From Amoebidium appalachense (taxonomy: Eukaryota > Protista > Ichthyosporea): a DNA stretch of 64,000 nt. Every line of letters starts with the position of its first letter. Positions within the stretch are counted from its first letter, which is position 1. The stretch lies in the NCBI GenBank assembly GCA_963693365.1, contig CAVNZM010000001.1:20406125-20470124 (forward strand). Reading direction: 5' to 3'. A program made the position numbers and the translations under genes. Positions 4,293-62,597 of this stretch are shown one piece after another. The notes under the pieces are model-generated. The model did no database searches, was not told the origin of the DNA, and worked only from the letters and a program-made list of their open reading frames with translations.

Positions 4293-4485
4293 TGTGCGTT
4301 AAGTTGCACGTTGTGATAGTTGGTGTGCTGATTGCTGTTCGTGCTTTCAAAGTCACCTTAGTCACCTCTTTGACAAGTCCTAGTATCTACTACATAGACC
4401 TGCTTTAGCTAAACCAAGTCGAAGAGCTATGTTGCCACAATATTAAAAACCTGCAGGCCACTAGACTTGCTGCTCGCACGCCACC

Positions 4486-6690: not shown

Positions 6691-8177
6691 GGTGACAAAA
6701 CAGTTTGTACTTTCCTACATGTGCGTGTGGATCTTACGTATACGAGATGTCACTGTCTTGTACAATTTTTTATTCTGGAAAATTCAAGACTTGGATCACC
6801 GGTTCAAACGAGAGGAAGGTTTGCTAGGTCTATTTTACGCGAGGCAGGGTAGCCTCGGCGGGAGGTATGGGGGAGGCCCCGGGGGAGGGGCCAATCCTCT
6901 CCCCACTTTATGTGTGACCTCTATGTGTTAACTTGACTCACACACTCTATTCGCTATTTCCATCTCTCCCTCCCTTCGTCCCCCCTCACCCTTCTCCCCC
7001 CCCCCCCCCCTCCCCTCCCTCTCCCCCTCCCTCTCCCAGGGCCTCCGCCCCCTCCCCCCCCCCTCTCTCTCCCCACCCCCACCCGCTCTTCCGGCGCCCC
7101 CCGTCTTTTTAGAATTCTCTATCTCTTTCTGCGCCCCTGCCCGCGAGCTCTCTATCGATCTCTTACCAACCTAGTTATTGTAGAGAGTTCTCTCTCCCAC
7201 TTGTCCGTGTTCAGAAACCTGCCCCGCAGCTGAGGCTGGTGGTTGCACGATGTTCCGTGCACCGGACCGTGCACCTCATAGACGTTGACTGCAATGATAA
7301 GGCAGTATAACTGCTGCTGTGTTCCAACTGTACTTGTCAAACTGCTACCTTTCACAGTGTTTGGAGGTAGCTCTTATTTTTCAAGGCCGACAAAACTTTC
7401 CTTTCGATGCGAGTGCTCACGCGCTAACTGATCGCCAGAGTATAGTTGATCATACGGCAGCTGAGACCACAGTCGCACGTGGCAACTTGTCAAATGAGCC
7501 CACAGCATTCGAATTCAACCATGGCTTTTGGGCTAAACACTTTATAACGGGCATACCGTCTCGCCTTATTCTCAACGTTGCGGCATTAAACACCGTCTGC
7601 ATGTCACGGGCATTACAACTGTCCTACATGCATGTGACTGTGTGTGCGACACAGCACGTCTGCCTAGGCAGGTGCCGTTTGTTGTTCGTGCGCAGCCAAT
7701 CAGCAACGAGCCTGGGTGCGCTTCCAAAAGTGAGACTACACCCAGTACTACGTCATGCCTTCTTCAACACACACGTGCATGTAACTCATTTGGTGCCGGT
7801 GAAACAGACAAAAGTTTTTTTTCAGGGGGGTAAAAGAACAAAAGCTCTCTAATAGTCACAGCTCGTAAAGATACGTTAACTCGGGCATACCAGACAAGGC
7901 CTCAGGACCCTTGATACCAGATTAATCACAACGAGCCAGAGCGTTTACGTTTGAGACTAAAAGCCAATCTGGCTCCCAGCCAACTCGTGTCGAGAGCTCT
8001 CTCACCTCTCGCACAAATTTCGTTTTGTCTGTCAACTGTCAAAGCCTTCCAACATAGCACAGTTGTGGGTTACCATATATACACAGCCAAGTACTACATA
8101 CAACCTAACGTTAGGCTGCACACGCGCAGGAAACACGCACACTGCCACGTGGCACACCCGCACACACAGCCGCCAAC

Positions 8178-14286: not shown

Positions 14287-16584
14287 GGGGGGGGGAGGGA
14301 CTGACCTGGTCCACGGGCTCAGCACTCTGGATGTCGATGCTTGTGATGCTCAGATGGTTGGCTGGGAACCGCAGGCAGTCGTTGGGCTCCACAACGTCAG
14401 AATCCTGCACACACGGTCAGCACACAGTCAGCACGAAAACATGCATGCACACAGCCAGCACAGAGGCATGCACACAGCCAGCACACACACATGCATGCCT
14501 ACAATATGCATGCATACATACGGTTGACAGCATTCATGGATGCATGCATATCTCACTTCTCCCCCCCTTCCCCCCCTTCTGATCGTCACCCTTCCCCTCC
14601 CCCCCTCCCTCCCCATTTCACATTTCACATCCCTGCATCCATCTCCTGCTTAGATCTCAACCTTAAACGCAAAGTATAGCATCATATCAAATCTCCCTAA
14701 CAGCACGGTAACTTTCGGGGATTGAGGTGACAGGTGTGCTCAGGTCGCTCATAGGTACAAGGGGGGGAATGTACCTTCTTTGGGCCAAACACGGCCATGC
14801 GAATGATGTGCACCGAGTTGCGGTGAAAGTCGTCAAAGGTGGTGGCTGCCACGGCACCTCGGATGGCCGAAGCAGCGGTCTTGCATAGGTCCCCTATGAA
14901 GTCGGGCACGGCAAACAGCTTGAGCGCCTCCTGCATGGTCAGAGAGGGGGTGAGGAGGGGCACAGGGGGGTGTGGGTGGGCGAGGGATGGCCCCTTGTAT
15001 TCACATGCATGGTGGCAAAGCCGACGTGGTAGCAGTGCACGTGAATACAATGGGCATGGGCGTGGGCCGGGGGCCACATTTTTGCGCCTTGGAAACACCA
15101 GCATCTGATTGGTGGCGATGGCTGTGCAAATGTATAGGTCCACATCAGCAAGGTAAACCTGTGGCTATAGCTTGCAGGATGTGTAAAGTACAAGCACCGC
15201 ACATAGGAGGGGTGGAGAGGGGTGGAGAGAGAGAGGGAGGGGGGGGGGGGGGGGGGGAGGGGGTTGGTGGGCTGGGTCACCCGGGAGAGCCGAGGGGGGA
15301 GAGGGGGGTTTGGACCTCCGGGCTGTCGCGGTCGACATCGAAGCGCCAGTTGTAAGCAATGTGCAGCTGCATGCGGGTGTGGTCTGCCGTCTCGATCTGG
15401 ATGATGTCTGTACAGAAGTCCGGCCCCAGCAGCAGCACTATGGTTCGGATCTGGTTGGGCTTCTTGGGCTTGCCCCCACTCAGCGACACCTGCGTGAACT
15501 CCTCGTCCGGCCCCTGTCCTGGTCGTTAGCAAGAGCATTGCAGAGGGGAACAGAGGAGACAGAGAGAGGGGAAGAGAGGAAGAGGGAGGGCGGGGAGTGA
15601 GAGAGGGGCCGCCGGGGGGGGGGGGGGGGGGGGAGTTTGGGGGCCGGGAGCGGGGGAAGAGGGGAAGAGGGGGGGAGGGTGAAGAAGAGACGTGGAAGCT
15701 GGGGGGAGACCCAGACTAAGAGGGTGAGGCGAGGATCGGCTTTTCAAGAACAGGTAGGTCTGGTAAGTGAGGGGGAGAGGGGGGGGAGATTTGGGGGCCG
15801 GGAGCGGGGGAAGAGGGGAGGAGGGGGGGGGAGGGTGAAGAAGAGAGGTGGAAGCTGGGGGGAGACCCAGACTAAGAGGGTGAGGCAAGGATCGGCTTCT
15901 CCAGAACAGGTAGGTCTGGTAAGTGAGGGGGAGAGGGGGAGGGGAGGGGAGAAGGATGTGTGTCGGTACCAGCATGACCAGGTCGGGGCCAAAGACCACC
16001 CTCGACTTCTTCTTCTTGTAGTCGTACACCTGCACGGCTGCATTGTGCGGCACCCTGCAGCCCAGAGTCAGTGTTAACATGCTGCCTATAGGCCTGGACT
16101 GCAGGCACGGTGCATCAGGCCAGAACAGGAGCATCGGAAAGGAACCATTTGCCCGGCAACGGTGGTGATAGGCCAACGAGGGAGAATGCTTGGGGGAAGG
16201 GGGGGAGAATGGTGGTGGTGGTGGTGGTGCTGCGGGCACCGGGGCAGGCGGGAGGGCGGGGGGAGGGGTTCGGGGGGAAGGGGGGGGAAGATGAGTAGAT
16301 ACGGATGGTACGTACCTGTAGGTGACGACCCTCGTCTTGTCCCTGCCGCGTGGGGCGCCAGCCTGGCTGGGGCGCTGGCTGCGGTCTGCCAGGGCGTCTC
16401 TGTCGCTGGCAAGCAGCTGCTCCACGGCATCGGGCAGCTGCTTCTGCCACAGCTCCTCGTACTCGTTGAGCATGTACGCCTTGCCCGTCTCCGCACGCAC
16501 CTTGCCTGTGCACACGTCAGTGCGCGCACGTGTGTGTTGGGGAGGGGGGGGGGAGGTGGGGCATATGCGCGTGGTTGGGTGGGT

Positions 16585-16632
<48 letters not shown>

Positions 16633-16765
16633 GTGGGGGTGGAAGAAGTGCATGGGCCTGCACATGTGTTATGGTGTTGGTAGAAGGAAAATCGGTATGC
16701 GTTGGGGACATGCACATGGTGGTGGAGAAGGAGGTGGAGAGGTGGTGGAGATAGTTTTTTTTTTT

Positions 16766-16796
<31 letters not shown>

Positions 16797-17929
16797 GGAG
16801 GGGGGGGGGGGAGGGAGACAACTGGCCATTGTAGTGGGCACATGTGCATTTTGTGGGGGGACGGAGGGGAGGGCATGGTACCTGTGCGGATGTCGCGCAC
16901 GTAGATGCCCTCGTTCTCCTCCAGGGGGATGGACTGCCGCCTGTCCAGCACCTCCACGTCCACTGATGGAATGTACTCCCCTGGGCCCTTGATCATCCAC
17001 CGATCACCGGGCTGCCGGGTGCTGCTGCCGTCCTTGAACTGCTTGACCGCCCCTGCACAAACACGTGTGAGCGCCCAGCATACACGCTGCAGGGTCATAT
17101 GCACACGCAGGGGTTTTATCACACACACCACTGCAGGGTTACGCACATGCAGGTTTTAGCACACACACTGCAGGGATATTATACACATGCATAAGGTTTT
17201 GCACTCACACTGCAGGGTTATACACATGCAGTGGGTTTGGCACACACACACACTGCAGGGTTAAACACATGCAGGGGGTTTACTTACTCAGCACCAGGCC
17301 CTCCTCCTCGCTCAGCACGTAGATGTCCTGGATGCCATCCTCCAGCCTCTCCCCCGGCTGCAGGAAGAAGGACTTCTCCCCCGCCACCACCTTGCGTGTG
17401 CCCAGCTGGTTCTTGCCGTTCTGCTCACACCCTCATGTCAACCCTGGTTCATTCTCCTACCATTGCTCCCCCCTCCCCCCCCCCCCCCCCCCCCCGGGCC
17501 CCCCGCCCTCCCCCCCCGTCACCACCCCACTGCACTCCTGACCTTCTGCTCTTACACCCAATATACAATGTATGGCAGTCTGTTCCCACACCTCCCCTGC
17601 CACCTCTTAGGCTTTCTCCACGTAAAGCCCAGAAATGATAAGGTGCAGCTTCACATTCTTCCCTTATAGCCCCTTCTTGCCAAGGCGGCACCATCAAGCC
17701 TGCCTTGGCTCTATCCCTTTCTAAACCCCCTCCGTACATCGTTGTTCAATTAGATTTCCCACCCTGTTGCTGTTACAAAGCCACTCCCCTCCACCCCCTT
17801 CCCCCCCATACACACACATTCCCCCGTACCCCCCACACACAAATCACGACCCCCCCCCCCCCCCTCCCCCTCCCACCCACCCATACAACTTGTGACACTC
17901 TGAGAAAAGACATCTAGCTATCTGTCAAC

Positions 17930-17968
<39 letters not shown>

Positions 17969-18719
17969 ACTCACACACACACACGCGCGCGCGCGCGCAC
18001 GCACACACACACGCGCGCACCAGCACGGGGTCCACAATGACGCAGTACTGGCGGTTGCTGAGGGTGGTGATGTCGACATTCTTGACCACCTCCTCGTGCA
18101 CCGTGGGGATGAACGACTCCGTGTCGGCCAGTGTGATCAGCCACTCCTCACCACTCTGCAGGAAGTGGAGGTAAGAAAAACATGCAGTGCAAGAGAAGAG
18201 ATCAACATGTGGGAGAACCAGGACGAGGGTGCCGGGAGGAGGGTGCGCGGGGGGGGGGGGGGGGGGAGGCGGGAAGGGCATGGCAGGATAGTGTCTGTGT
18301 GTTGCTTTGCTGTGGGACGTTAACCGGTGGTGGAGTGGGTGGGTGGATGAGTTATTGTGTTTGTGTGTGTGTGTGAGTGCATGCATGCACGGGTGTGTGT
18401 GTGTGTGTGTGTGTATCTGTGTCCGTGTGTGTGTGTGTGTGTTTGTGTGCGTGTGTGTTGGTATGGGGAGGTGTTGTGTGTGTATAGCCTCTGTATGGGG
18501 CAAGTCCCAGCATGGAGCCCGAAATAGGGACACCGACCTTTCTTGTCTTGCCGAACTTGTCCACAAAGGTCTTCTTTGCGCGCATGTGCAGGGCCGTCCT
18601 CTCAGTGAGGATGTAGGCATCCAGCGTCTCCACCACCTCCTCGTAGGCCGCTGGCAGGTACGCACCAATCGTCTCCACAGTCCACTCGTCCCCAGTCACG
18701 TGCGCCTGCCCGTCCCTGT

Positions 18720-18793
<74 letters not shown>

Positions 18794-18881
18794 TGTGCAT
18801 GTCCGAGGGGAGGTGGGGAGGGAGTCAGCATTTTTGGGCACGAGTTACATGAGCCACGCAGAAGGGAAATAAGTCAAGGAA

Positions 18882-18917
<36 letters not shown>

Positions 18918-18996
18918 AATCTGTAGGTGAAGGAGTGGGGGATAGGTGGTGGTGGTGGGGGGGGGGGGGTGGGGGGGGGGTGGTGGTGGTGGTGCG

Positions 18997-19037
<41 letters not shown>

Positions 19038-19289
19038 CTGGTATATCTATGTCCCAAAGGCGTTACAAGTCAACTCATGCAGCTCAAGAGCGATCTGGAT
19101 TAGCGTAAAACAGCTGAGGAATTGCAGCTAAGCTTTTACCCAGACGGGCAGGGTTGCTCAAGGAGCAGGGTTGTTCAGAGAAAGCAATCTTAAACAAAAC
19201 ACAAAACACATCCAAACTTATTAAAAAAAAAGATAGCTCAAAGTAGAGAAAAGGTGGGGCCTCTACTTCCCCAACGGGGAGAGAGAGGG

Positions 19290-19320
<31 letters not shown>

Positions 19321-20163
19321 AGGCGGGGGGGGGGGGGGGGGGGGGGGGGTCCAGATGGAAAGTGGTGAGGGTGGAGCATAAGCAGCAGGAGGAAGGGAGT
19401 GTGTTTGTGTTTGTGTGTGTGTGTGTGTGTGGCTGTGGCGTGAGGGGGAGGTATTGCCACCTGCCAGTGCAGTCCTTCCTAGCACGCAGCTTGAGGGCCT
19501 GGTTGGGGCGGATGACCGTAGCAAGCACCCTCTCCACCACCTCCTCGTTAACGTGTGGAATGTACGTGCCTGCCATTAAGCACATAAGTTAACACCGGTA
19601 GCGTGCATATTCCCCCCCTCCCCCTGGCCCTCCCCCACTCTCCCCGCTTTCGCCACTACAAAGCCACAACCAAATGAAGGCATTGCCCCTCAACATTCTC
19701 CCAACTATTCCCAGAGCCTTTGGCTATGATTTTTTGTTATGTCCAAAAACACCAGGTAAATACCCACGTCCCAAACAAACCCCTAACCTCCCTCCCCCCC
19801 TCCCCCACTGTCTCTCCTCCTCTCCCGCCAAAGGGGTTTCCAGGGCCAATCCCATGTCCTCAATGCCAAAACCCTCCACTTTTCAACAGCCTTGCAGCAC
19901 ATACCCGGACCCTCGAAGAGCCACTCATCCCCCGCAACCCTGACCACGCCCTTTGCGTCCTGGAAGTCCAGCACCGCCCTCAGCCGCAGGGCCACATTTG
20001 CAGCCACAATCGCAAGCTTGGTCAACGGCTTGACCACCTCCTCCCCGGGGTACAGCGGGAACGGGTCCCCTGCAAGACGCACCTCCAGGTCGGCAAACCG
20101 GAGCTTAGCCTGCCCACTGCTTTCAACAACAACCTGGGGGAGGAGGGGGGAAGGGGACAGGTA

Positions 20164-20195
<32 letters not shown>

Positions 20196-20758
20196 GGAGG
20201 GGAGGGAGGTTAGCACAAATGGCAACGGAGCAATTAGAAGTATGAGCGGGAAAAGAAAAAGGAGTTGACGATTGGGCAAAGGGAAGGGGATGGGGAACTA
20301 CAGGGAAAGAGGGTGAAAATTTCTTCCTCTCATACTTGTATTTGTTCATGACGGCAGGGGAAGAGAAAAGTGAGTGATACAGGCCGAAAATGGATCATAC
20401 CGCCTACCCTCAAGTAACAGGTAGTGGGTATAGACTCCTAGTTTTACAACAGTTGTCACGGTGTGATATATGGTGGACTAAGGTTGTGTTAGCGTTTTGT
20501 GCGTCTTTGTATGTTTGTTGGTAGTGGTTGTGGCGGCGGAAAAAAAGGGGAGAGGGAGGAGGGGGGCGGGGAGGGGGAGGGGGGTGCAAAGGAGCCACCG
20601 GTGGGTGGCATCCTTTCGACCCTGCAGGTATGATAAAAAAGACTCTTGTTACTTGAAGAGGGAAAAAAATCGACACTAACCGGATAAATAATGATAACAA
20701 GGCTGGGTAGGGCGCCTAGGCAGAAGAAAGGGAAGGGGCTCTAGGGGTTGTTGCTGTT

Positions 20759-20789
<31 letters not shown>

Positions 20790-20834
20790 GGGGGGGGGGG
20801 GGGGGGGGAGGGGTTGTGTGTGTGTGTGTGTGTG

Positions 20835-20867
<33 letters not shown>

Positions 20868-20918
20868 GGGGGTAATCAGGAAGGGGAGGGGATGAGGGTT
20901 GAGGGGTTGAAGGCTTTT

Positions 20919-20986
<68 letters not shown>

Positions 20987-21434
20987 ACCTCTCCGTCTTC
21001 ATCTCGTTGGACTGGGTTCTGGACTACGCAATAGTGGTTTGGAGGTACCGTGACCATACGTGTTGGGGTGACCACAACCTGCAACCCAAACGTTAGCACA
21101 CTCTAAGCAGAGAATGGGAGAACTACATACAAGATGACCTTGCTTCATGATCTGCACTCTGCACCAACAAAAGCTGGGCTAGCCAGGCCCTCGGCTTACG
21201 ACTCGGCAACAGCTCGAACCCATGGCCAATTAGAAGCAGCCGTCTACATCAGTTTACAATATGTCGCATGCAAGACAGGTTAAGCATATAACAACACACC
21301 TGTTCATTGTCCTGGCGAATGAAGGTTTGTGGGCCGATTACAAGGCGGGTGACGTTGGTTTGTGAATCAAAGACATGGATGTAGTGGTATGGGGCAATCC
21401 GAATCAAACTGCTCTTGTCGTCGGCCGGCGCCAT
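11760..21434 (-). CDS. MVP: Major vault protein, 17 exons, about 846 aa (860 aa if the in-frame ATG at 21476 is used)
   Basis: GT-AG exons with consistent phases: 21434-21300, 21078-20989, 20133-19905, 19569-19461, 18715-18538, 18155-18021, 17420-17288, 17052-16882, 16505-16316, 16054-15970, 15513-15316, 14930-14775, 14404-14306, 13950-13737, 13331-13169, 12821-12699, 11892-11760 (total 2541 nt). MVP motifs: [104 protein letters not shown]. Confidence 0.96.
15633..15945. repeat. Tandem duplication of about 155 bp in MVP intron 10
   Basis: TTTGGGGGCCGGGAGC...GACCCAGACTAAGAGGGTGAGGC...AGAACAGGTAGGTCTGGTAAGTGAGGGGGAGAGG occurs twice in tandem with few differences. Confidence 0.9.
17080..17280. 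repeat. Minisatellite (about 40-bp unit, about 5 copies) filling MVP intron 7
   Basis: Repeated CACACACTGCAGGGTTATACACATGCAGGGGTTTT-like units. Confidence 0.8.
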
Positions 21435-23259
21435 TTTCTCTATTCTTGGTGGGGCTGCTGCTTGCTTGCCTGACATAGTTCCCGAGATCCTGTGGGGTTT
21501 GCACAGGTGTCTGCTTGAGTTTGGGCTTTCTCATTGAACACAACATAACAGGGAAGGGATCTACTGTTGGTTAGTCCAGGCATAGAAGGTCTGATTAACA
21601 TGCGGTTACTAAAACCAGGCTAGATGTCTGATTAAGGGGTATCAGTGACGTGTTTCACAGAAAAGACTTGAAAATTAGCAAAAGAACAAGCAGCTCTTGT
21701 TTGCAGGTCACCTGGGGCATACCGACCCAAAAAGACGGCCACATACGTAACCTACGGAAAGGTAGCCCTACGTATACACCTTGAACCTGTAAGGCCTTTT
21801 GTCTAACCGGGCTTTTACGCTTTGTAAGGGTCCAGCACGTTCATGCGGAGAAAGGCAGAGAGAATAGGCAGAGCAAGGCGGCAAGAAAAGAGAAGGGGCT
21901 GGGGAACGGGATTACTAACAGAGCTCGGTTATACTCTCATACGCCACACACTGTTGAGGGTGGCTGCTCTGCGGTCAACTTGAAAACTGGTGCGAAGATT
22001 TTGTTTTGACTGACTTTATAGTAAATTGCGTAACCCACACAGCTTTATTGTGTTATGAAATCTATGATTTAGAGACCCCCTTTAAAGCATTTAAATTATA
22101 GAGAGTGTTATTTCTGTATCATTTAGTCTGCTGATTGGTTGAATGGCTTTATTTTTAGTTTTACCAAACGCCCATTCCATTCGACATCCCAGGGCTTCAT
22201 ATGATCTATCAGGATGACGGCTCTAAAAATGAGGTCAACATTCATATGAATGAGATCGACTGTTGAAGTTAATACATATACCTGCACTAAATAATTCTCT
22301 CTATTCAGAGTATGAGCTTTAAATGGCCAAAATCATCATAATAGTGTCATGTATTTCATTAGTGTATTTTCGAGAGAGTAATGCCTGCCATATTTGGCAG
22401 GTTTCGGTGACCAATGAAAGGCGACTAGCTATTATGACGTAACCGTTGGGCGAGGCGGCCAAGTTGGCATTGCGCCTTCTCGGGAGATTAGGCGGAGGCC
22501 TTATGATCTCACACGGCCACGGCCCAGCAGGCCTAGGCCTAGGCCCTAGGAGCACTGTCACCTGTGGCAGGCAGCCGCAGGAGCTGAGTCGAGCTTGAAC
22601 GCGCAGCTTGCGCGGGTACGCGTGGCCGTGCAGCACACGTGTGCTGCATCACATGTGCAGACACTCACGGCACAGCTCACCCGGTGACCATGGACGTGTA
22701 CGGTGTTTGTGCCGGGCTGCACTCGTACTCCTTTGCTACGTACTGCATGGTTGATTCAGGTACTGCTCAATCGACACGATTTGCACCTTGCTCGACCCCC
22801 AGGCACAGCCCGGCGGGCACAGTTTTTATTTGACGCCATCATTATGTCCCGACCAGTGTTGATCCAGTCTGAACGACCCATCATCGTGCTATAACGCTAC
22901 TAGCACATGCATACACTCGATTATATAAAAAAAGTGACCAGCCTGGAAAAATGCATAAAAAACACCGCCCACTTGTGGCATGACCTGTGCTTTGTAACCA
23001 GTTGCAAGTGTAAGAGCCAAAAACATGTGTGTGGTTCTATTTCCTGAGTGCTGACCGGTCAATAATGTGCTGTTGCCAAACAAAATTTTAAGTGATAAAC
23101 GGCCAACGACACAAAAAGAAGCAGAACAAAACACCGTGTTTACTGTGTCAGAGCCCCAACACCCCACAACCACGCTAAATGCTATCCCACCCACCATGCA
23201 GTCTGACTCTGCGCACACGATATTAGTTTTTCACTTGGGGCATAGTATTATTCATTGCC

Positions 23260-30973
<7,714 letters not shown>

Positions 30974-31485
30974 GTTTGACCCTTACGCAGAGCGCTACCG
31001 TGATAATAACACCTATACCCTCTTGCCTATACAACCTCGCTAACTACCCACCTACTACTGTGCTACTTACTGGTATAGAGGGACTGCGCGCTACCAAGGC
31101 CTTTTTGCCTTCCGTCAGTTTTCTCGTTTTTTTAGACCGGCCGGCTTCGAAGCTTCAACTTTTGATCATTAGGTGACAATCTTGGTTGCCATTTTTGGTA
31201 ATTTAGTGGGTCTTATATGCAAATATTCCAAGTTCAAACAAATCCGCTCAAGAAATGTGCAGTTACATAAGGATTAACTTACATAGATTATAAAATGTAA
31301 AAAGAAAGGTTTCAGCTAGAACAATAATGCCACTTAGCTGGCCTTTTTTCTTATATAACTCTTTTCCATACCTTTTCTCTGCAGAGTCTGGAGTCTCAAG
31401 AAAGAGACGGCGGATCTGATTGGCTGTCTTATTTTTGGTCTGATGGGTTTTCAATTGGTTCATGGTCACGGCATTGACTTTGCCG

Positions 31486-45297: not shown

Positions 45298-47176
45298 AAA
45301 AAAAAAAACCCCTATTCCTCACCACCTACATATGCTACCTCCCCCCCTCCCCCCTCATCCTCCCCCCCCCTCCCCTCCCCCGCCCCCTGCTCTATTCCCT
45401 CCCACACACACCTTTGCAGTGTAGTAGACGACCACGTGGTGGCCCCGTGGTGCCCCCATGTGCAGGTATGTGGGGTAGACACTCTCCCACAGGGCAAACG
45501 GTACCATAGCCCGCTCACTCACCGTGACCCCTGTCTCCTCGAACACTTCACGCACAGCCGCCTGCTCCAACTGCAACGAGGAACGAGGAACGAGGAATAG
45601 GGCACCAATGAGCTTATAGAGCACTGTGTAATTCCACTGAAGAGGCCACAGTAAATTCAGCCCCCACCCCCTCCCCCCCCCCCTCCTCCCCTCCCCCCCC
45701 CCCCCCCCCCCCCCCCCCACACACACACACAGGGGAAAAAAAAATGGCAGAGAAAATAAAAGAAAAGGGAAAAAACCCAATCCTCCCAGGAGAATAAAGT
45801 ACCCTAGCACTTCTCCTTTCAACGTACGCGAACTATGAAGGTGAGCTGCCAGAAGCAAAGAGAGAGAGGCTTGCAAAGACTAAGGTCCAGTATCCCAGCC
45901 AATCCAATGTTGGGCTAGCGGCAGCTGTTGCCTTTTTTGGCACTTCCTATGCCCTCCATGCACACGTGCTGGTAGCAAGATGTGACCAGCAACAGGGAGA
46001 GGCTGAGCAATTTGATTGGTGCAATGGTCCAATCACCATGCTGCTGTGATTGCCGCTCATATTTGGAAGTGCAAAGGCAATGGGTAGGGGAGGGCGGGAG
46101 GGTGGTGGTGGTGGTTGTGAGGGGGGGGGGGGGGGGGGGAGGGTAGGAAGGAGTGCGGAAGGGGCGGGGGGGGGGGGGGGGGGGGAGGAGGAAGGGGGGA
46201 GAATAAAAATGGGAGAAAGCAAAAGGGAAAAGAGAGAAGGCCTCACTGTCTCACCAGGATCCAAATGGCCCCCAGGCGGCACCCAGCTGTGGGGGGGAAG
46301 GTGTGGAGTTAGGGAGATGGCTATGAGTGGAAGGGGGGGGGGGGACAAGGTGGCTTAGAGACACTTGGGAGGTGATTGGGTGGCATTGGTTGGTGGAAGC
46401 AAGGTGGCACGTTTGTAATGAGCAAGCAAACAGTAGAGGAGGATGAGGGGGGGGCATACGGAGTTCAAACTTTACAATTGTGTCTGGTGAGGCGGAGGAG
46501 TGAGAAAACAGTGTCTGTGTGCGTATGGGAGGAGGGGGAGGGGGAGGGGAGAGGAGGATGGGGGGGAGGGGGGGGGGGGGGGGTTAGCACGTACACACAC
46601 GGGAATGTGCGCATCCACGGGGGTCTCCTTGTCAGCAGGACCTCCCCCCGACCATTTGTCAGCAACACAGACACCCCCACAGCAACCCTCTCCCGGCCAG
46701 AGGTAGGTGCAAGCACCGTGCCCTGCATGCGGGCCACTTGCACGGGGCAGTCTGGTGCATGCTGCAGTGATATAGCGGGTCAAATGCTGTGCATACATCG
46801 GTATAAGGTCGTGTTGGTGCTCGTGGGTGCTTGGTGTTTGTTTCTATGTTTTTACTTGGTCGGGGGGGGGGGCCGGGCGAGGGGGGGGGGGGGGGGTTGA
46901 ATGGGTTGGGTGCATGGGAAAACGGCAGAGGGGAATGGAGAGGGAGGAGAAGGGCGGAAGAGGGGGGGGGGGGGGGGAGGAGAGAAATCCGAATTACACA
47001 CGGAGGCGGGGCGTGCGGGGGGGGGGGGGGGGGGGGGGGGAGGGGAGAGGGGTTATTTTGTTATTGCCGCCAACCGACCACCCTTTCAACCAACACGGTC
47101 TTTGGGTAAATGCACACCACCACCAAGGCACTGGCTCTCCTTGCCACCCAGCCAGCACCAACACTACACTGCCAAA

Positions 47177-50774: not shown

Positions 50775-51408
50775 CCCCCCCCTCCCCCTCCCCCCTTCCC
50801 TTCCCCTCCCCTCCCCTCCTCCTCCTCTCCCCCCTTCCTCCCCCCTCCCCCCCCCCCCCCAAAAAACCCCCCCGAGGTTCTTGGGAATCCGGAAAAAAGT
50901 TTTGGTAATTCCCAAACCTTTTTTTGGGAATTTCGATCCCTGCTTTGGTACCCGGGCGCCGGGCCGCTGGCCGACCTGAGTCAAAACTGTTGCCCTCGGC
51001 CTTTGCCTCCAACACTTTCAACGTTGGTGACACTAAAATAGCCTAAAACCCCTTGCCATTTAAAGGTCTGGCCGTGCCCTAGGAGCACTTCCTGGCTTAA
51101 TACGTCCTGTGTTCAGCAACTTGAGGGGTCGGCATATGCAGCAATACCCCATAGGGGTGGGCACCGCCCAAGTGTATATTTCTCTAAAGCTTCTTTGTGC
51201 AAGTAGAAGCAAGTTGAAGGTCTGAAAAATATTAGAGGCCTACGTATGTTGAAAACGGCGAGGCGCAGTCACTATCACGCTCTCTTGCGAAGGGAAGGGA
51301 ATTTTTTCGATTATATACAGCGTTTTAAGGGGATTTGTTTCCTCCCCACATCTGTTAGCATACCATGGAAGCACAGTAGCAGCATAGCACCTACCTGCTT
51401 TATCTGAA

Positions 51409-52080
51409 ATGGGCTACTGTGGGGCCGACCAGTTCCACCTGTCGTGGGGTGAAGAGGGGGCTGTCTCCGTGTGCTGTGGACACGGTGCTGAGTGTGTTTG
51501 CGGCCGGGTTCCTGGCCAGCACCATACCCAGGCTGTGCTGGCTGCCTCTGTCCAGGGATAACTACATCCCCCCTCAACAAGCTGGTAGGTCTGACACTTT
51601 CCTCTTGCACTTCCATACTGATGGATTACTGCCTTGCATAGCAAATTTCCTTTATGATATTATATGATGGAGAGGTAGTGTTAGTGGTCGTGCTGAGCGA
51701 AAGACATTTAAAATGTGTGTGGGCAGTGGGTGGGCCTGCAGATATTGTTCAGCCTGATGGGGATGGCAGCCGGTGCCTTGCAACTTATGACCCACAGCCA
51801 GCTGGCCGAGGGGCTGGCGCCGTATGACGTGGCGGCACAGTCGCTGCTGTGCGTGTGCTGGTGCGTGTGCCTGGCACACTGTGTGGCCGACGACATGCAC
51901 AACCGCAAGAACCCGGGCATACTCTATGCCTTCTGGTTCTTTGCCCTCCTCCGGCAGGTGCTGGACTGCCTGGCCTGGGCCACCGACCAGGGCTGGAGGT
52001 AAGGGGGGTTGGCTGGGTGCTGAAGCTGGCAGGCTGTGCTGTTTCCTGTGTACGTGCCATCTTACCGTCCCATACCCCTC

Positions 52081-52118
<38 letters not shown>

Positions 52119-52282
52119 CCCTCTCCCTAAGGATGGGCTCTGCTTATGACACATACTGTGCGCATCGCTGATTTTGCATACTTGAATGTCTGCCTTTGCA
52201 TGTGTCCTGCACCTTGCTTCTCATCTTGCTGTGTACTTCGCGCCATATTTCGCATTCAACCCCCCTGCCCCTCCTCCCCCCC

Positions 52283-52313
<31 letters not shown>

Positions 52314-52843
52314 ATCCGGGTACACAGTACGGGCACCTCACCCTGGCCTTCACTCCCTTACACGTTCACCCGCTCTTGGTCATAACCTTCGGAGGCAGGG
52401 CACCTCCTAACACCCTATGCCGACAGGAAAGGCACGGCTGGAGGCACACCCGCCCTGTTAACGGCCACAGCACACATGGTTGCACCCGTAGGCTGCATGG
52501 TCGTGTCAGGCTACATATGGAGGCAGAGGTATCTGCACTACAAGGCATACACACCCATCCCAGACACCGTCAACCCGTTTGAATACAACTCCCCCGTGGG
52601 GTTGGTTGAGGGGCTGCAGATTGCAATATCGTCTTTGGTGCTGCTGCCCATCATCCGCCTGGTGCTGGTGTTTTTTGTGTTCTTTGTGGGGTGGATATGG
52701 GCGTGCCTGTGCACGTACTCGTTCAAAAAGTACACGGCAGATGAGATATCGGTGAGGCGCCTGTCCAAGTGGAGAAGGTGAGTGTGCTTCCTTCACTGCT
52801 GGTGTCTAAGTTGGGTGTGAAGTTGGGAGGGTGTGTGTGTGTG

Positions 52844-52876
<33 letters not shown>

Positions 52877-53400
52877 GGAAAGGGGGGAGGGGAGATCCGA
52901 GGAGGGGAGGGCAGTTGAGGGGAGGGGATGGGGGATCCGAGGAGGTTTGGGGGGGGGGGGGGGGAGGAAGAGGGGGGATGAAGGGGATATTGGATAAATA
53001 GTGGGATCTGCATATGCGTAAAGCGGGGGGGAGGGAAGGGGGGGAGAAGTAGGAGAGGTTTGGGGGCGAAGAGGTAAAGGGAAACGAGATGCATGAATTT
53101 GAAGGAGAATTTTAAGTTTTTTCGCCTTGTGGGGGTGTGTGTGTGTTGTTGGGGTTGGGGGGAGAGGGGGGGGGGGGGGGGGGAGGGAGGGAGGTGGGGG
53201 GGGGGGGCAGGGAGGGTGGAGGGGGTGTATGGCTTGTAATAGTCTGGCTGTAGCAACAATACCCCTGGGGGGTTGATGGAGGGGAGGGGGACGACCTTGA
53301 AAGAGTGAGAAGAATGAATATCCGGTTTGGATGGAGCACCCAAAATGGTCGGAATGAGCATGAGGGGAGAAGGGTGTGTGTGTGTGTGTGTGTGCGTAAT

Positions 53401-53435
<35 letters not shown>

Positions 53436-54013
53436 GGGAGGGAGAAGGCTTGACAGATGACAGTAATCGGAGGATACTTCTATGTCTGTTGAGTGGCTGC
53501 AGCCATATGTGGCAGAAATTATTGTCGATAGTTCATGGGAGGGCACTATCGGGGGGGTGAGGGGGAAAGGGAGGGCAGGGGCTGGGAAATTTGATTGGAT
53601 ATGGAGGGGAAATTTTGGAAGGGGTTTGTGTCAGGTTATGCGTTTTCTTTTGTTCTCCCTCTTTTTCTTGGTTGAAATTTGAGATGGGCGGTGGGGAGGC
53701 ACGGGCACGTGGTGAACAAACCGGCGAATGTGCAAACTATTGATACAGTTGTGACGGTGGTGTGGGGGCAACCCAGGGGCGGGGGGAGGGACGGGGGGAG
53801 AGGGGCCAGACAGAGAGGGGGGCGGGCGGGGGGAGGGGGGGGGGGGGGAGAGGATGGCGGTGGGGGGGGGGGGGGGAGGGAGGAGGAGGAGGGGGGGGGG
53901 GGGGGGGAAGGAGGGGCCGAGGCTATGAAGGGTGCTGGCCGTGTTGACATAGGGATAGCTCTTTTTTTTTTTTTATGGTAGCGTGGGGGGGAGGGGGAGG
54001 GGGGGGAGGGGGA

Positions 54014-54044
<31 letters not shown>

Positions 54045-54719
54045 TTCAAGTTGCAGGGGATATCCGTGGTTGGTTGTGGGTTGGGAGGTGCTGGTCAGAT
54101 GGCGGGGGGCTGCATATTTGTTTTGTAATTTTTTTTTATTGGCCGACTGTCCTTATCTTCTTGATTCTTACTGGCCTGTTTTATGGTTGTTGTAAGTATT
54201 GCAATGGGGAGCTGGTGGAGGGTCTGTGGAGAACACTGGCTGGAAGGTGATTGGATGATGGCCAGCTGTATGGCCAAGAGGCTGTAATAGCAGGAGGAAG
54301 AAGGCGGGGAGGGGGGGGGGTGTTACCGACCGGCAGATACGAGTTTTTTTTTTTTTTTTTTTTTTTTTTCCCTCCCCCTCTTCCTCTCTCTCTCTCTCTC
54401 TCTCTTTTTGAGCTTTTCCTTGTGCAGATGCATCGGTGGTTGGATGGGTGGGTGGTGAACGTGTGGGTGTGTATGAAAGTCAGGCTGGCGGAGGGGAGGG
54501 TGATGTGGAAGGGATTTAGGGGCCCCCCAGGGGGGTTGGGGGGGGGGCGGAGGAACGGGGGCAGGTTGGTATGCTTAAGGCTGGTCGTTGATTTGGTGAC
54601 TTGGGGTGTGCAGGTATCTGTTCTGGATCCCGGCCTACATTGTGGGCAGAATCATTCTCTTCATCCTGGGCTTCTACTACATCAGATTCAACACCCCGGA
54701 AGTAGCAGAACCCACAGAG

Positions 54720-54752
<33 letters not shown>

Positions 54753-55954
54753 ACCCCCTCTTTCTCCCTAACCCCCAAAGCATACATATCCCCCTCCCCC
54801 CCTCCCCCCCAGCACCTTTCCCTGTATCCCACCTACCCCCTCTCTTGTTAGAATTCGTGAGCGCACCCTCCTCTCCTATTCTTTTCCTCCGGTTTCTTTT
54901 CTCCATTATGTCCCTCCCCTCCTCCCCCCCCCCCCCCCCCCCCCCCCTCCCCCCCCCCACCTCCCCACACACGCGCGCGCACACACAGCTCGCTCTCTCT
55001 TATTTTATTTCCAACCATTGTTACCCTCTACCTGGGAAACAAAACTATGACTGAGCATGCATGCCACCCTTGCTAGATATTATCACGGTAGTGGGTGCTA
55101 TGTTCAAATACAGTTGCCTGTCCTGGCACGCACACATGCACATGTGCAGCCTTCCATGTCTGTCTACACTTGCATTTTTGTGGTTTTGCACCGTGCACAC
55201 ACCCCCATGCTCGTACCCAACCTAATACGTGCACAGGGCTACTGGCGCATGTGGTGGGAGGGCACGCTGCCCAACATCATCGTGTGCAACCACGTGGCCG
55301 TGTTCGATGGCCTTCTATTGGCCCTGCAACTGAGGGTCTGTGCCATCACAAAGGCCAGCATCAGGAACGTCCCTTTTCTTGGCAGGTCGGCACCCAACCC
55401 CTCTGGAGAAAAGCAAAACAAAACACTACCTCCCACCAATACCTGCATTATAACCCACCTTGTATTACGCCCCCGATCTCCTCCAACCCCCTCCCCCCTC
55501 CCCCCTCCCCCCTCCCCCCCTCCCCCCTCCCCCCTTCGGTACACACAAGAGCCCACACCCTACCTGTAGCCTGTTCCGCACTCAAGCTCAATCGATTGCG
55601 TAGCCATGCACCTCATGTACACCAATGCCTTGTGGCCTCAGCCCCAAACAACAAAATCAGCCATTTTTTATGAGCCGATCACAGACCACCTTTTTAGTCC
55701 AGAAGCCATAACGAGCTCCTAATAGGTGCTTGCTGTGCCCTTTCCTTAGGCTCTAGGGGGTGTGGTCTTGGCTCATACCAGCTCTGGAATTCTAGTCATT
55801 TCCAGAGCATATACAGTGCCATGGCCCTAGGGCATGCGTGGTGGTCTGCTCATGGACACGAAAGTTCAGGCATTGACACGTCCTGCATGTGGCACACATG
55901 TCCCCACAAAGGCTCTTCTCTGCGTGCACACATGTGTGTATGTATACGCATAAG

Positions 55955-56045
<91 letters not shown>

Positions 56046-56809
56046 CCTGATGGAGGCCATGCAGTTTGTGTTTGTTGAACGGTCCACTCCGGAACAGCGC
56101 CAGCGTGTGCTGCAGATTATTGACACGAGAGCACATGCACCCCCCGGGGCCTACCCACCCCTCCTGATCTTCCCGGAGGTAAACTAGAGCTGACCATTGC
56201 TATTGTGTTTGCAGCGGTAGTTGGCATGTTGGTGTGGATGGTGCTGATGGTGTGGTTGGGTGCAAGAGTAAGGGATTGGCAGCTTTGTGTTAGGCAGTGG
56301 TTGGAGTAGTTCAGGTGAGTACGGGCATAGTGACGAGTCAGGGTAGATGGGAGAGATATGTATGGAGGTGGGTGCCGATGCCTGGCCCCCAACGGCTCGC
56401 AATAAGCGTTGAAACTGGTGTCTCCCTAAGCACGTGGTATTGCCTCCTCTCCCACTTCTTCTCATCCGGTCACCTACCCCCTTCCTCACCCTCACTTCCC
56501 CCTTCGCCTCCAGCAAACACACACACTTGAACACACACAAACAGACATGAAAACGCGTTTATTTGCTTGGCGGGTAGAAAGCCACCCACTGTTTTTACAG
56601 CACCGTATCTGATGTTTGATTGGGTGCACAGGGGACGACCAAGAACCAGGCCAGTCTGATCATGTTCAAAAAGGGCGCCTTTGTGCCCGGGGTGCCTGTG
56701 CAGCCAATCACCATCAAGTACTATAACGGCATGTACGACCCCTCATTCGTCAGCGAGGTACCCATTTGCCCCCCACCCCCACCCCTCCAACACACCCACA
56801 CACACACCT

Positions 56810-56845
<36 letters not shown>

Positions 56846-57495
56846 TTCCCCTCCCCGCCCATCTGTGTTGTGTTGTCCGTCGTGTATGTGCACTCGGTAC
56901 TCCATTACACATCCCCCCCCTCCCCCCACTCTCCCTCCGTTCGTTCCTGCACGTAGAAATCTTTGGTCATTGCCCTTTCATGCTACTCTCCCCCCTCCCC
57001 TCCCCCCCGCCCCTTTTTCTTTTCGCCCCAAAACGCTCACACACACACACACACACACCACACACCACCATCATGATAATACCCCCACCCAGCCTCCTCC
57101 GTGATTTTTTCGCCGCCAGTGTCAACAATCCACATATAGATAATGCACTGAGGCTGTAGAGTGAGATGTAAATAGGTAACTGGACAGAGACAAATGTGAA
57201 GGAGACGAGCAATTAACGAATGATTACCTATTGGAAAGCAGTTTTGTGTGCGACGGCGACTGTGCCCACGGGGTGTTCAACAAGATCATGTTTAGAGGTA
57301 TCAACTACCACGTTTCACTTACTCATGACTTCCCTTTTTCCCATACCCTCTCTCTCTTTTCCCTCCGTCCCCCTGCCGTCCCTTTTTATTCCCCCGGGAC
57401 CCCGAACACACGCCATACCATGCAGGGTGAAACGATGTTTTCAATGTGGCGCATGCTCTGCCAGGTACCGTTAACCCCACTCCCCTCCCCCCCCA

Positions 57496-57526
<31 letters not shown>

Positions 57527-57665
57527 TTCCCCCCTCCCCCCTCCCCCTCTCCCCCTTCCCCCTGCTTGCTTAGGGCACAGCAGGGTGCCCAACAACTGCA
57601 AACACACACAGCAAGCACTTGCGCACACCTGCCTGCAAAGCACGTAGGCATGTGCACACACATGC

Positions 57666-57702
<37 letters not shown>

Positions 57703-58579
57703 TTCTTGCACACACACACGCGCGCGCGCGCGCCTACACACACGCAGACACACACACACACTGACACGTACACGCGCACGCGCACACACACAAACCCAGA
57801 GAGAGAGAGACGCTAGTGTGCACATCCACACGCACACATACATAGCCATACATTACTCATCCACACGAACTATTACATATACGGGTGCGCGCACAACACT
57901 GGTGAGTGGAAAGAATAATAAGATTGCAATCAGAGGGTGGCTCCCAGCCACTGTTCCCTCAACCTGCTAATCACGACACTCTCGGCATTGGCCTCATAAG
58001 GTGCCATGATAATCGGCCAATCACCAATGCATCTATATTTAGCCATGCCCCAACCAACCAATCCCCTTGCAGTGGTTCATGTTCATCCGCATCGAGTTTC
58101 TGCCCCCCTACATCCCATCGGAGGAGGAGAGGGCTGACCCCATTCTCTATGCAAACAACGTCAGACACGTGAGCAAACCAAATCCCCCCTTCCCCCCCCC
58201 CCCCCCCCACATACACACATCACCTCCACCACAACTCACCACAAACGTCCCCCCCCCCTTCCCCCCCCCAAACCGCAATCCATCGGGCTGTGGGTACGTT
58301 GCACCGTGGACTGACAACGCCCAAAATGTGTCTTTGGTGGTTGAAAGAGGGAAGAAAGAAAACAGAGGTGTTGGAAGTGTGTTGCTCACCCATTCTCACT
58401 CTGATGGTAGTTTTGGATATGATGAGGCTGGATAAGTGTCTGTGGGGCAGGGCAGAGAAGGCAAGAAGTGAAAGGGCATGCATATGCACGTGAACCTATC
58501 TCCTTTCTTCTTTCTCTTTACAAACAGGCGTGTGTGCACATGTGTGTGCGTGTGTGGGTGGGTGGGTGGGTGGGTGGGT

Positions 58580-58627
<48 letters not shown>

Positions 58628-58642
58628 CGCGCGTGCATGTGT

Positions 58643-58715
<73 letters not shown>

Positions 58716-58859
58716 AAGTGTGTTGTTATGTGTCAGTGTGTGTCTGTGTTGGTGTGTGTGGGTATGGCACAGGTGTGTGTGTTTGTGTACGTGCAGCTGT
58801 CTTAGTGGAGGGACGTGTATGTCTCACGGTGTTTTGTGTATACGTGTGTGTGTGGGTTT

Positions 58860-58913
<54 letters not shown>

Positions 58914-59058
58914 GGGGGGGGGGGGGGCAATGTGCCATCACATTGAACGGATACGAATTTCTCACATGGGGGATCCAATAGGTGATGGCGCAGTCACTGA
59001 ATGTGGCCGTTACGGACCACTGCTTTGAGGACTATCTGCTCTATGCCGCAGCTAGAAG

Positions 59059-59111
<53 letters not shown>

Positions 59112-59416
59112 CGCCCCCCCACCACCGCTGTCTGTGTTGCTTCTCAGCCTGGCAGTTTTACCCGTGACAAGCGTCTCATCTCCTCCCTCACCCTCCTCTC
59201 TTTCGTCCCCGCGTTTCCAAAGGAGTTAATCGTGCATTATTGCTCAGTGGTACTTTTTCGTCCGACTCTGCACATTGGCAAAACCAAGATGCAGAAGTGC
59301 CTAAACCTAATCAACACAGACGAGGAGACAACATCGAAACCACAAAAGTAAACGTCACAGAGCTGAAGCAGGTTTGTACCCCCACCCTCCCCCCACCCCA
59401 CCAACCCCCCCCCCTT

Positions 59417-59454
<38 letters not shown>

Positions 59455-60070
59455 CACACACACACACACGCACACACACATGCACGCACGCACGCACACG
59501 CACACGCACACAATATGCACACACAAAAAAAAATAATGCAAGAAAGAAAGAACCAAAAAAAAAAAAGAGACCCCAATTCCCCTTGTTCTATTCTCCTGTC
59601 ATCTTTGCTCCCTATGGCCTTCGATAACTTCGTCATTCCTGTGTCTTCCGTTGAGTAATGAGCAGGTTTATTCTCACATATTCAAACCTCTCTACACGTC
59701 ATTTTACCTCCACATAGAGCCGCTCTCCCTCTGTTGTTGTGGACATGTGTGTGCCTCTATATACAGGTGTTATTTGCAGACGGAGCAGTGAATGATCACA
59801 CTTGGTGCACGTGATGTTGATAGACTCTATGGTGGCTGCAGTCCCTGGCATCTGCCTCACTGTTTGGGGGGTTCCGTCCCCATATATGGCTTGCTCTCTT
59901 TTTGCTTCCTCCGTTCTTCCCCGAATGCTTGTGATGGAAGGTGATCGTGTATCTGTGAGTACGTGTTCCCCCCCCCCCCCCCCCCCTCCCCCCCCCCCCC
60001 CCCCCCCCCCCCCCCCTTCAGCTCTCCGTGAAGCGAAAGGTGACTGTATGTGTGATTGTGTCCCTCCCCC

Positions 60071-60104
<34 letters not shown>

Positions 60105-60770
60105 ACCCACCCACCCACCCACCCACCCACCCACCCCACCCCTCCAGGTATGTGTGTGTGCACCCCCATATGAAAGCGGAAAGTGGCAGTGTGTGGCACG
60201 TGTTCATGTGTGTGGCTGCAGCTGTACGATGGATTCACCCTGGACACGGCCAAGAGTCTGCTGGAACGATTCGACCACATGTCCTCGGGGGGTTACATCA
60301 ACCCCGAGCAATTTGCAGGTAAAACCCCCTTCTCTTTGCCTTGGCCACCTCCAACACACCGTGCCAACAAATAGAATTTTGGAGGTGGATAGTTACGCAG
60401 ACTAAGGCACATGCATGCGGCCACACAAGTGGGGCATCCACACCCAACCACAGCTCCATACTGAGGGCCTATGTAACCCCCATGTCTCCACGCCGGCATG
60501 ATCCGACCTTGACCAATACCTTAGTTGGTTAGTTGGGGGCACCCTTACCCCCACCCCATATGCCTCGACCTTGCCTGCTGCCTGTCACACACCCGGAGGC
60601 TTCATGTATGATGTTGCGGAATCCCTGCTTAGCTGACAAGCCCCCGTCCCCTCTTTCCCCCCCCCCCCCCCCCCCCCCTCCCCTCCCCCTTCCCTCCCCC
60701 CCCCCTCTCCCCTCCCCCCCAGCGAAACAAACACACGTACACGTGTACAGACAACAACACGGGCGCACGT

Positions 60771-60852
<82 letters not shown>

Positions 60853-62597
60853 CTTGTCACACTTGCATGCACATGCACAGAGGGTGTGTTTGGTGCCCCC
60901 CTAGACCCCCACATCCAGGAGATTTTCAACTTCTTTGACATTGATGAGGACGGCCTGATCGACTTCAGAGACTTTTGCATTGCCCTGCTCTCATGCAGTC
61001 CAAAGGCCTCCACAGATGATAGGCTCGAGCTGGCCTTCCAGGTCAAACTACCCCCCCCCCCACACCAACCCCCCCCCCCCCCCCCCCTCCCCGTCTTTCC
61101 CCCTGAACCATGACCACCACCCACGCGTATTTGCTTCCTGTTTCCCCCTCCACCTACACCAATAATGCAGGAATCCCATACCCGCGACAAACATTTTTAA
61201 CGCACACACCACCACCCACCCCTACCATGGCCCGCCAAACTTTTGTGTGCAGCACCTTAAACCCCCCTCCCCCAGCCATTTCAGTTTCTAATTATTATAA
61301 GTCGAAGATGGTGGGGCGGGCGGGCGGGCAAGAGGAGGGGGGGGGAAAGCGGGGGGGGGGGGGGGGGGGGAGGGTCGGGTGTCGATTGCCGGGTGTTAGT
61401 GTGAAAGGAGTAGTGCATCGTTTTGTGCATGGGCAGGTCTCTATCCCCATCTAACCGTGTGGGCCCATGTTACCTACCACAGATTTACGACCAGAGCCAC
61501 CAGGGCACCATTGGCCGGGCAGACCTGCGGCGCATCCTATTGGGCGCCAGTACCATGGGGTCCTCGGTCACGGCCGCAAGGATAGACACATTCCTCGATG
61601 CAAACGGCGTGAGGGAGGACAGCAAGATCGACCTGGAGGAGGTGGGCCATGGCACACACACACGGACATGCGTGCCTGTGCACGGGCACGGGCACTTGCA
61701 CATGCTGAAGTCAGCTTGGGCACACACACACACACACCTGCTAAGTGCCGGCCATCAACTATCGATCTTTGGGCACTGTGCGGTAGCATAGCAAGGAGAT
61801 ATTTGTAGAAGGAATAGAGTTAGATAATGTGTGGGTGCACATTACTAACTACATGCATGTGGGGTGCTACGTGTGCCTAAGCTGGGTGGGGTGCAGTTTA
61901 AGTGCATGGCGGCAAGAGACGACCGGCTGACCACCACCGCCCTGAGCCACATCAACGAGGCATATGCCGCCAACCAGGTACTATTGTGTGTGCAACGTTC
62001 AAATTGGACATGGTCTGAACCGTGCCCCTGTCTAGGCGTGCCTATGGGTGTGTTTGGATGTTGCTGACTGCTCCTGGCAGTGCTTGCGGGGCAAAATCCT
62101 TCGGTTGTCTTTTTGAAACACCTGTCTTTGGCATGAGATACAAGCTTGGCCACCCCACCCCCCACCCACCCCCCACCCCCCACCCCCCCTTAACCAACCA
62201 ACCACCATCACCCCCCCTTTTTTTTTTAACCAACTAACCAACCACCACCAACCCACTCATCCATTCCTCCCTCCCCCCCCCCCCCCCCCCCCCCCTTTTC
62301 TCTCCCTCCCCCATACACACACATGCACAACACACCCATGCCGGCACTTGCACACACACACACACGCACACACACACACAAATACACACGCGCGTGCGCG
62401 CGCGCGCACACACACACACACTCACTCACACTCACACGCAGAGGCGGCCAACTGTGTTCTTCCCCTTCCATACGCCGCACCTTGGGCTGCGTCTGTCACG
62501 CATGTCATCGGCCATGTCTACACCCTCTCTCAGCACCCTCCCACGCATGTCAGAAGAAGAAATAGCAACCTCGGCACCAGTAGACTCAAAGGTGTGA
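51409..62597 (+). CDS. LPCAT: Lysophospholipid acyltransferase (LPCAT1/2-like) with an N-terminal ABCB6/MRP-type TMD0 and C-terminal EF-hands, 16 exons, about 736 aa
   Basis: Exons 51409-51584 (two 1-nt homopolymer fixes needed), 51727-51998, 52427-52777, 54614-54701, 55237-55385, 56046-56178, 56632-56757, 57426-57464, 58073-58168, 58982-59058, 59320-59371, 60222-60318, 60881-61041, 61483-61641, 61897-61977, 62442-62597. Acyltransferase motifs NHVAVFD, FVER, LIFPEGTT, FKKGAFVPGVPVQP and EFLPPYIPSEEERADPILYANNVR. EF-hands DIDEDGLIDFRD and DQSHQGTIGRAD. Confidence 0.9.
52125..52265 (+). repeat. Copy of the 140-bp intronic repeat in LPCAT intron 2
   Basis: Aligns over its full length with 33840-33985. 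Confidence 0.85.

Follow-up and report, generated by a model that had tools for sequence, protein, structure and literature searches.

A TMD0-like five-helix domain in frame with an LPCAT1/2-type acyltransferase in the ichthyosporean Amoebidium appalachense

LPCAT1 and LPCAT2 are described as monotopic enzymes of the ER and lipid droplets that carry a dilysine ER motif (PMC12315963, PMC4293825), and the multispan enzymes LPCAT3 and LPCAT4 remain on the ER (PMC4293825). AGPAT motifs 1-4 are given as HxxxxD, GxxFxxR, xxEGxx and xxxxPxx (PMC8753187), and Ca2+ inhibition mediated by an EF-hand has been reported for LPCAT1 (PMC3439698). TMD0, in turn, is regarded as a domain of ABC transporters alone, and there is dispute over what it does. 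One report states that the N-terminal segment of ABCB6 occurs in no other protein, that the TMD0 of ABCB6 folds by itself and brings GFP to lysosomes, and that the residues responsible for this sorting are unidentified (PMC4410673). Elsewhere the TMD0 of worm HMT-1 is described as insufficient for targeting, that of MRP1 as redundant and those of HAF-4/9 as dispensable (PMC6077975), and the role of the domain has been called unsettled (PMC9385563, PMC11574312).

Here we describe a gene of Amoebidium appalachense, modelled with 16 exons, in which a TMD0-like five-helix domain stands in frame with an LPCAT1/2-type acyltransferase and EF-hands. Spliced contigs confirm that the fusion is real. With a scope so far of one gene in one organism, it offers a natural test of TMD0 as a self-contained sorting or docking unit.

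Gene model and spliced transcript

The window, the whole 64,000-nucleotide stretch of DNA that was analysed, contains the gene on its forward strand. The model spans 51409-62597 in 16 exons, with GT-AG borders at every intron and one open frame of 736 aa. Contigs confirm the first three exons and the point at which exon 4 begins; the remaining exons, and with them the tail of the protein, are predicted.

51250..51408, + strand: 5' UTR, with at least 174 further bases upstream on the contig
51409..51584, + strand: exon 1, coding part, aa 1-58; Cys4, Cys21, helix 1 and loop 1; Pfam MTABC_N 2-36
51456..51460, + strand: G5 run, one G shorter on the contigs; frameshift 1, likely an assembly error
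51568..51573, + strand: C6 run, one C shorter on the contigs; frameshift 2, likely an assembly error
51727..51998, + strand: exon 2, aa 59-149; helices 2-4; TMD0_ABC 72-140 on residues 70-137
52427..52777, + strand: exon 3, aa 149-266; helix 5, linker and, from about aa 194, the LPCAT N-terminal membrane anchor; fusion point
54614..54701, + strand: exon 4; second helix of the acyltransferase anchor; start by contig, end predicted
55237..55385, + strand: exon 5, predicted; AGPAT motif 1, His314-x4-Asp319; Pfam Acyltransferase, E 0.0025
56046..56178, + strand: exon 6, predicted; motif 2 (FVER) and the first part of motif 3 (FPE)
56632..56757, + strand: exon 7, predicted; remainder of motif 3 (GTT), then motif 4 (PGVPVQP)
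57426-57464, 58073-58168, 58982-59058 and 59320-59371, + strand: exons 8-11, predicted; remaining acyltransferase region and linker
60222-60318, 60881-61041 and 61483-61641, + strand: exons 12-14, predicted; EF-hands
61897-61977 and 62442-62597, + strand: exons 15-16, predicted; tail ending -DSKV, stop; no dilysine motif

Three public runs were returned, all from one sample in one study and none recorded as RNA, and the stretch is present in two of them (X1 and X2). In X1 a single spliced contig of 3,451 bases, at a depth of 120, joins exons 1-2-3-4. Compared over 51250-52075, contigs of both runs splice 51584 to 51727, removing intron 1 exactly, and both carry the splice from 51998 to 52427. 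For 52777 to 54614, the X1 contig exits exon 3 into exon 4, with the exon-3 end at contig position 1130, as the gene model predicts, and X2 has the same two loose ends. The last two junctions had already been named, together with their exons, in a first-pass annotation of this DNA, and the contigs bear them out. The precise removal of three introns indicates that the contigs represent spliced RNA or a copy of spliced RNA. Two details of the predicted part deserve mention: a start of exon 11 at 59148 would interrupt the frame, so that the model uses 59320, and the predicted exon 4 donor, GTAGCA at 54702, is weak, such that the true end of that exon may shift by a few codons.

The 5' leader of 333 bases (51076-51408, + strand) leaves 907 contig bases over, a plausible length for a 3' UTR. 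A stop in frame at 51385-51387, 24 bases before ATG 51409 and also present on the contig, makes that ATG the first possible start. Three ATGs lie within the leader. One of them, ATG 51246, opens 53 codons that end with a TGA at 51405-51407, directly before ATG 51409, and may represent a regulatory upstream ORF; position 51406 is A in the contigs, which keeps the stop as TAA.

Read literally, the window frame from ATG 51409 meets a stop after 51 codons, and the N-terminal, middle and final parts of exon 1 lie in three different frames, owing to two +1 shifts at the G5 and C6 runs. Since the contigs represent spliced RNA or a copy of it and lack the extra bases, these are most likely homopolymer errors of the assembly; an allele difference is a less likely explanation. 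The exon-1 peptide had earlier been written as it appears on the contigs, and in that respect it stands, but the window letters give a broken frame and two bases had been silently removed to obtain it. Given homopolymer errors within exons, further apparent frameshifts in this assembly are to be distrusted. Introns throughout the window abound in poly-G/poly-C tracts of about 30-40 bases and in CA repeats.

The genome is intron-rich across the window. Its other contents include a protein kinase frame of 313 aa (4465-5403, + strand), an intronless GH35 beta-galactosidase of 605 aa that may be a retrocopy or a horizontal transfer (8115-9929, + strand), a multi-exon major vault protein gene with Vault repeat and shoulder domains (~14700-21530, - strand), a multi-exon gene for V-ATPase subunit C (~23447-30982, - strand) and a NUDIX-domain exon (45358-45879, - strand). 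A V-ATPase C exon scores 80 bits against 382-residue chains, which we take to be mammalian, and 65 bits against a 392-residue chain, presumably that of yeast; such scores would suit a unicellular relative of animals but do not establish one.

The enzyme part and a proposed sorting role

To judge from its motifs, the second part of the protein is an LPCAT1/2-type acyltransferase with EF-hands, and its preferred substrate may be lyso-PE or another lysolipid. Hydrophobic segments at aa 204-250 and 266-294 make up a predicted two-helix anchor, and the four AGPAT motifs follow as HVAVFD (314), FVER (354, without the leading Gly), FPEGTT (387) and PGVPVQP (408), with the motif-1 residues His314 and Asp319 intact. 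Exons 5 and 6 match Pfam Acyltransferase weakly; exons 13 and 14 match EF-hand families, with exon 13 reaching 27.9 bits for EF-hand_1, above the cut-off of 25.4. Neither an ABC membrane domain nor a nucleotide-binding domain follows TMD0, the downstream exons being those of the acyltransferase and the EF-hands. The predicted tail, -DSKV, lacks a C-terminal dilysine ER motif. We take this ending to fit the class I PDZ-ligand pattern, for which our own estimate of the chance expectation is ~3%.

On balance, we favour a reading in which a likely TMD0, standing in front of an LPCAT1/2-type enzyme, carries that enzyme from the ER to membranes of endosomes, of the vacuole or of the cell surface. 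The N-terminus would lie on the lumenal side, stabilised by a bond between Cys4 and Cys21, and the membrane would be crossed five times, so that the enzyme emerges on the cytosolic face, the side on which a monotopic LPCAT acts. The multi-pass anchor would exclude the protein from lipid-droplet monolayers, and TMD0 together with the missing KK tail would sort it past the ER, to a destination at which lysophospholipids may be re-acylated with acyl-CoA, probably under Ca2+ control. Lys and Arg number 7 in the three predicted inner segments versus 2 in the three outer ones, a bias that favours the N-out orientation; the 2 Lys/Arg of loop 4, on the predicted outer side, run counter to it. An N-out domain of five helices has its C-terminal end in the cytosol and is thus topologically compatible with a monotopic LPCAT, and a predicted tail without KK fits relocation from the ER. 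If the proposal is true, phospholipids would be re-acylated locally, outside the ER and lipid droplets, and comparison with the TMD0s of ABCB6 and ABCC proteins could reveal sorting residues.

The main alternative, which we hold to be rather unlikely, retains a true TMD0 and assigns it no new organelle, the domain serving as an ER anchor that confines the enzyme to the ER bilayer and away from lipid droplets, or as a scaffold that binds partners and so docks the enzyme to another membrane protein. Such contacts have been described, Kir6.2 being touched by the TMD0 of SUR1 (PMC5344670) and LAMP-1/2 being bound by that of TAPL (PMC6199259), and in thraustochytrids the extra N-terminal helices of DGAT2C are reported to hold the protein in the ER, a paralogue being found on lipid droplets (PMC10686087). 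Retention in the ER is harder to reconcile with a predicted tail that lacks the KK motif of mouse LPCAT1/2 and thraustochytrid PLAT1, or with the arrival of the ABCB6 TMD0 alone at lysosomes.

Identity of the N-terminal domain

Our preferred reading, relocation by TMD0, concerns a domain that is very probably homologous to the TMD0 of ABC transporters. Hydropathy gives five hydrophobic segments over about aa 17-180, with peaks at 21-39, 58-76, 93-111, 123-141 and 158-176, in agreement with the five helices that had been expected. The outer N-terminus has 20 residues and includes Cys4 and Cys21, the latter at the entrance to helix 1; the two may form a bond. The loops between helices measure 15 residues, then 11, 9 and 14, and an N-glycosylation sequon is absent from the N-terminal segment.

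Each of the first two exons finds a single family in Pfam. Exon 1, with the query read through by an X at the first break, matches MTABC_N (positions 2-36 on aa 3-36, E 0.003, 17.6 bits), and exon 2 matches TMD0_ABC (72-140 on aa 70-137, E 0.019, 15.6 bits). Both matches are in register, protein and model numbering agreeing within 3 residues, and both, with single exons scored, lie below the Pfam cut-offs of 29.1 bits for MTABC_N and 27 bits for TMD0_ABC. The profile hits anticipated by the first-pass annotation are therefore present and collinear, at scores short of the family thresholds. Because TMD0 was a prior hypothesis, the E values for two of 24,736 families become ~2e-7 and ~2e-6, figures that are optimistic given hydrophobic bias. 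As a control we took the top 150 by hydropathy of 206 hydrophobic stop-to-stop frames from the rest of the window, minus one overlapping exon 1; none of the 149 matches MTABC_N or TMD0_ABC, and 11 match some family at E <=0.05. The overlapping frame, scanned separately, had no match. The control is modest, since these frames are mostly non-coding and make a weaker comparison than real membrane proteins.

Several negative results count against the assignment. Helix 5, encoded in exon 3, has no TMD0 family match in Pfam, no ABC transporter came back when exons 1, 2 and 3 were searched against PDB sequences (exons 1 and 2 at E up to 10), and NCBIfam offers no family for exon 1 or exon 2. A model of exon 2, folded without an alignment at a pLDDT of 67, contains three helices; Foldseek returned nothing for it at E <=0.001, and VIA-align found generic three-helix bundles, with a best Z of 9.8 and no TMD0 among the best 50 rows. 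It is because both profile scores are below cut-off and the fold comparisons uninformative that we hold the assignment to TMD0 as very probable and not as firm.

A competing reading is an unrelated five-helix bundle that has come to resemble TMD0 by convergence or composition, for which the sub-threshold Pfam scores, the absence of PDB and NCBIfam matches and the largely non-coding control frames can be cited. We consider it improbable, since two separate exons each find a TMD0-type family and nothing else, in near-identical numbering, and since the number of helices, the lengths of the loops and the pair of cysteines all fit TMD0. If the domain is a TMD0, its donor would have been an ABCB6- or ABCC-type transporter gene in the past of the lineage. 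The first-pass annotation drew its comparison from ABCB6, but the domain is not specifically of that type: the match of exon 1 is to the model of the ABCB6 family and that of exon 2 to the general TMD0_ABC, a split that would suit a donor of either type.

Fusion point, novelty and comparison with known systems

The boundary between TMD0 and LPCAT lies within exon 3, at about aa 180-194 (52518-52560), and the reading frame stays open across it. Window and contig agree over 355 bases across the junction without a mismatch, and the uninterrupted passage from one domain into the other that had been noted earlier thus holds in both. The accompanying idea that the module was shuffled gains no support as far as exon shuffling is concerned, because the junction sits inside an exon.

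It is quite improbable that TMD0 is a mere passenger, the working product being an ordinary LPCAT that arises by initiation within exon 3 or by cleavage. In-frame ATGs do exist at 52476 (Met166) and 52497 (Met173), contigs are blind to transcript starts, and the three ATGs of the leader might divert ribosomes. Against this, the sole X1 contig on exon 3 enters it from exon 2, with 0 mismatches over exon 3 (region compared, 52330-52826), and the TMD0 part reads through in the transcript with a coding-like codon bias, its GC at third codon positions being 0.81 versus 0.77 for the enzyme part. A mis-assembly, or the merging of two adjoining genes, is scarcely credible: the window does contain homopolymer errors and a broken exon 1 as written, but the junction falls within an exon on which window and contig agree, and none of 264 frames scanned in the rest of the window matches an ABC transporter family.

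When exon 3 was compared by phmmer with 1.84 billion representatives, two matches were returned at E <=0.001, both to the LPCAT part only. These nearest relatives align from aa 194-198 on, with ~45-55 residues before that point and no TMD0 match, which places the fusion point inside exon 3; one of them, P0002, aligns over aa 198-317 at 36% identity. Each forms a cluster by itself, comes from a contig of ~1.3 kb and may be a fragment. When longer proteins were searched by word seeds with exons 2, 3 and 7, no fused relative emerged, blanks that say little because conserved exon 7 drew only 2 candidates. Two metagenome scans confirmed a fused relative in 0 of 235 and 0 of 278 pattern matches, and the ESM Atlas gave no usable match for exon 2 or exon 3.

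Among the literature matches listed, no fused TMD0-acyltransferase is described, and supplementary domain-architecture tables might contain one. The earlier statement that no such protein had been described is in keeping with these searches, but uniqueness does not follow, because searches with single short exons missed even well-known LPCATs: the architecture is likely undescribed and is not established as unique. What we have is a new architecture built from two known parts, and it is transcribed. More tentatively, we speculate that it is the first natural case of TMD0 on an unrelated enzyme, a portable sorting module that would put Lands-cycle remodelling on endolysosomal or plasma membranes, from which no LPCAT of the AGPAT family is known, and that perhaps marks a conserved subfamily in poorly sampled unicellular eukaryotes.

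The enzyme part most closely resembles LPCAT1/LPCAT2 (LPLAT8/9) and thraustochytrid PLAT1, which are described with the same two-helix N-terminal anchor, four AGPAT motifs and C-terminal EF-hands (PMC12315963, PMC8753187, PMC4121067). Compared with LPCAT1/2, the Amoebidium protein has ~190 extra N-terminal residues with five helices and is multi-pass instead of monotopic, and its predicted C-terminus lacks the KK of LPCAT1/2 and PLAT1. The N-terminal part resembles the TMD0s of ABCB6/HMT-1 (MTABC_N) and of the ABCC proteins SUR1, MRP1 and Ycf1 (TMD0_ABC) in its place at the extreme N-terminus, its five helices and its Cys pair before helix 1. In the SUR1 TMD0, as described in PMC5344670, there are ~25 outer residues versus 20 here, a C6-C26 pair versus Cys4/Cys21, and a first loop of ~14 residues versus 15, the later loops being short in both. 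In contrast to the ABCB6/ABCC proteins, an acyltransferase follows in place of the ABC core, and the outer N-terminus has no sequon.

A second lipid enzyme offers a parallel. The DGAT2C of Aurantiochytrium, a sterol acyltransferase, differs in that it belongs to the DGAT2 family, that its 10 extra helices are not described as TMD0 in the cited part of the report and that their effect is ER residence; it is likewise hairpin-anchored, and it likewise gained a multi-pass N-terminal extension, one that sets its location (PMC10686087).
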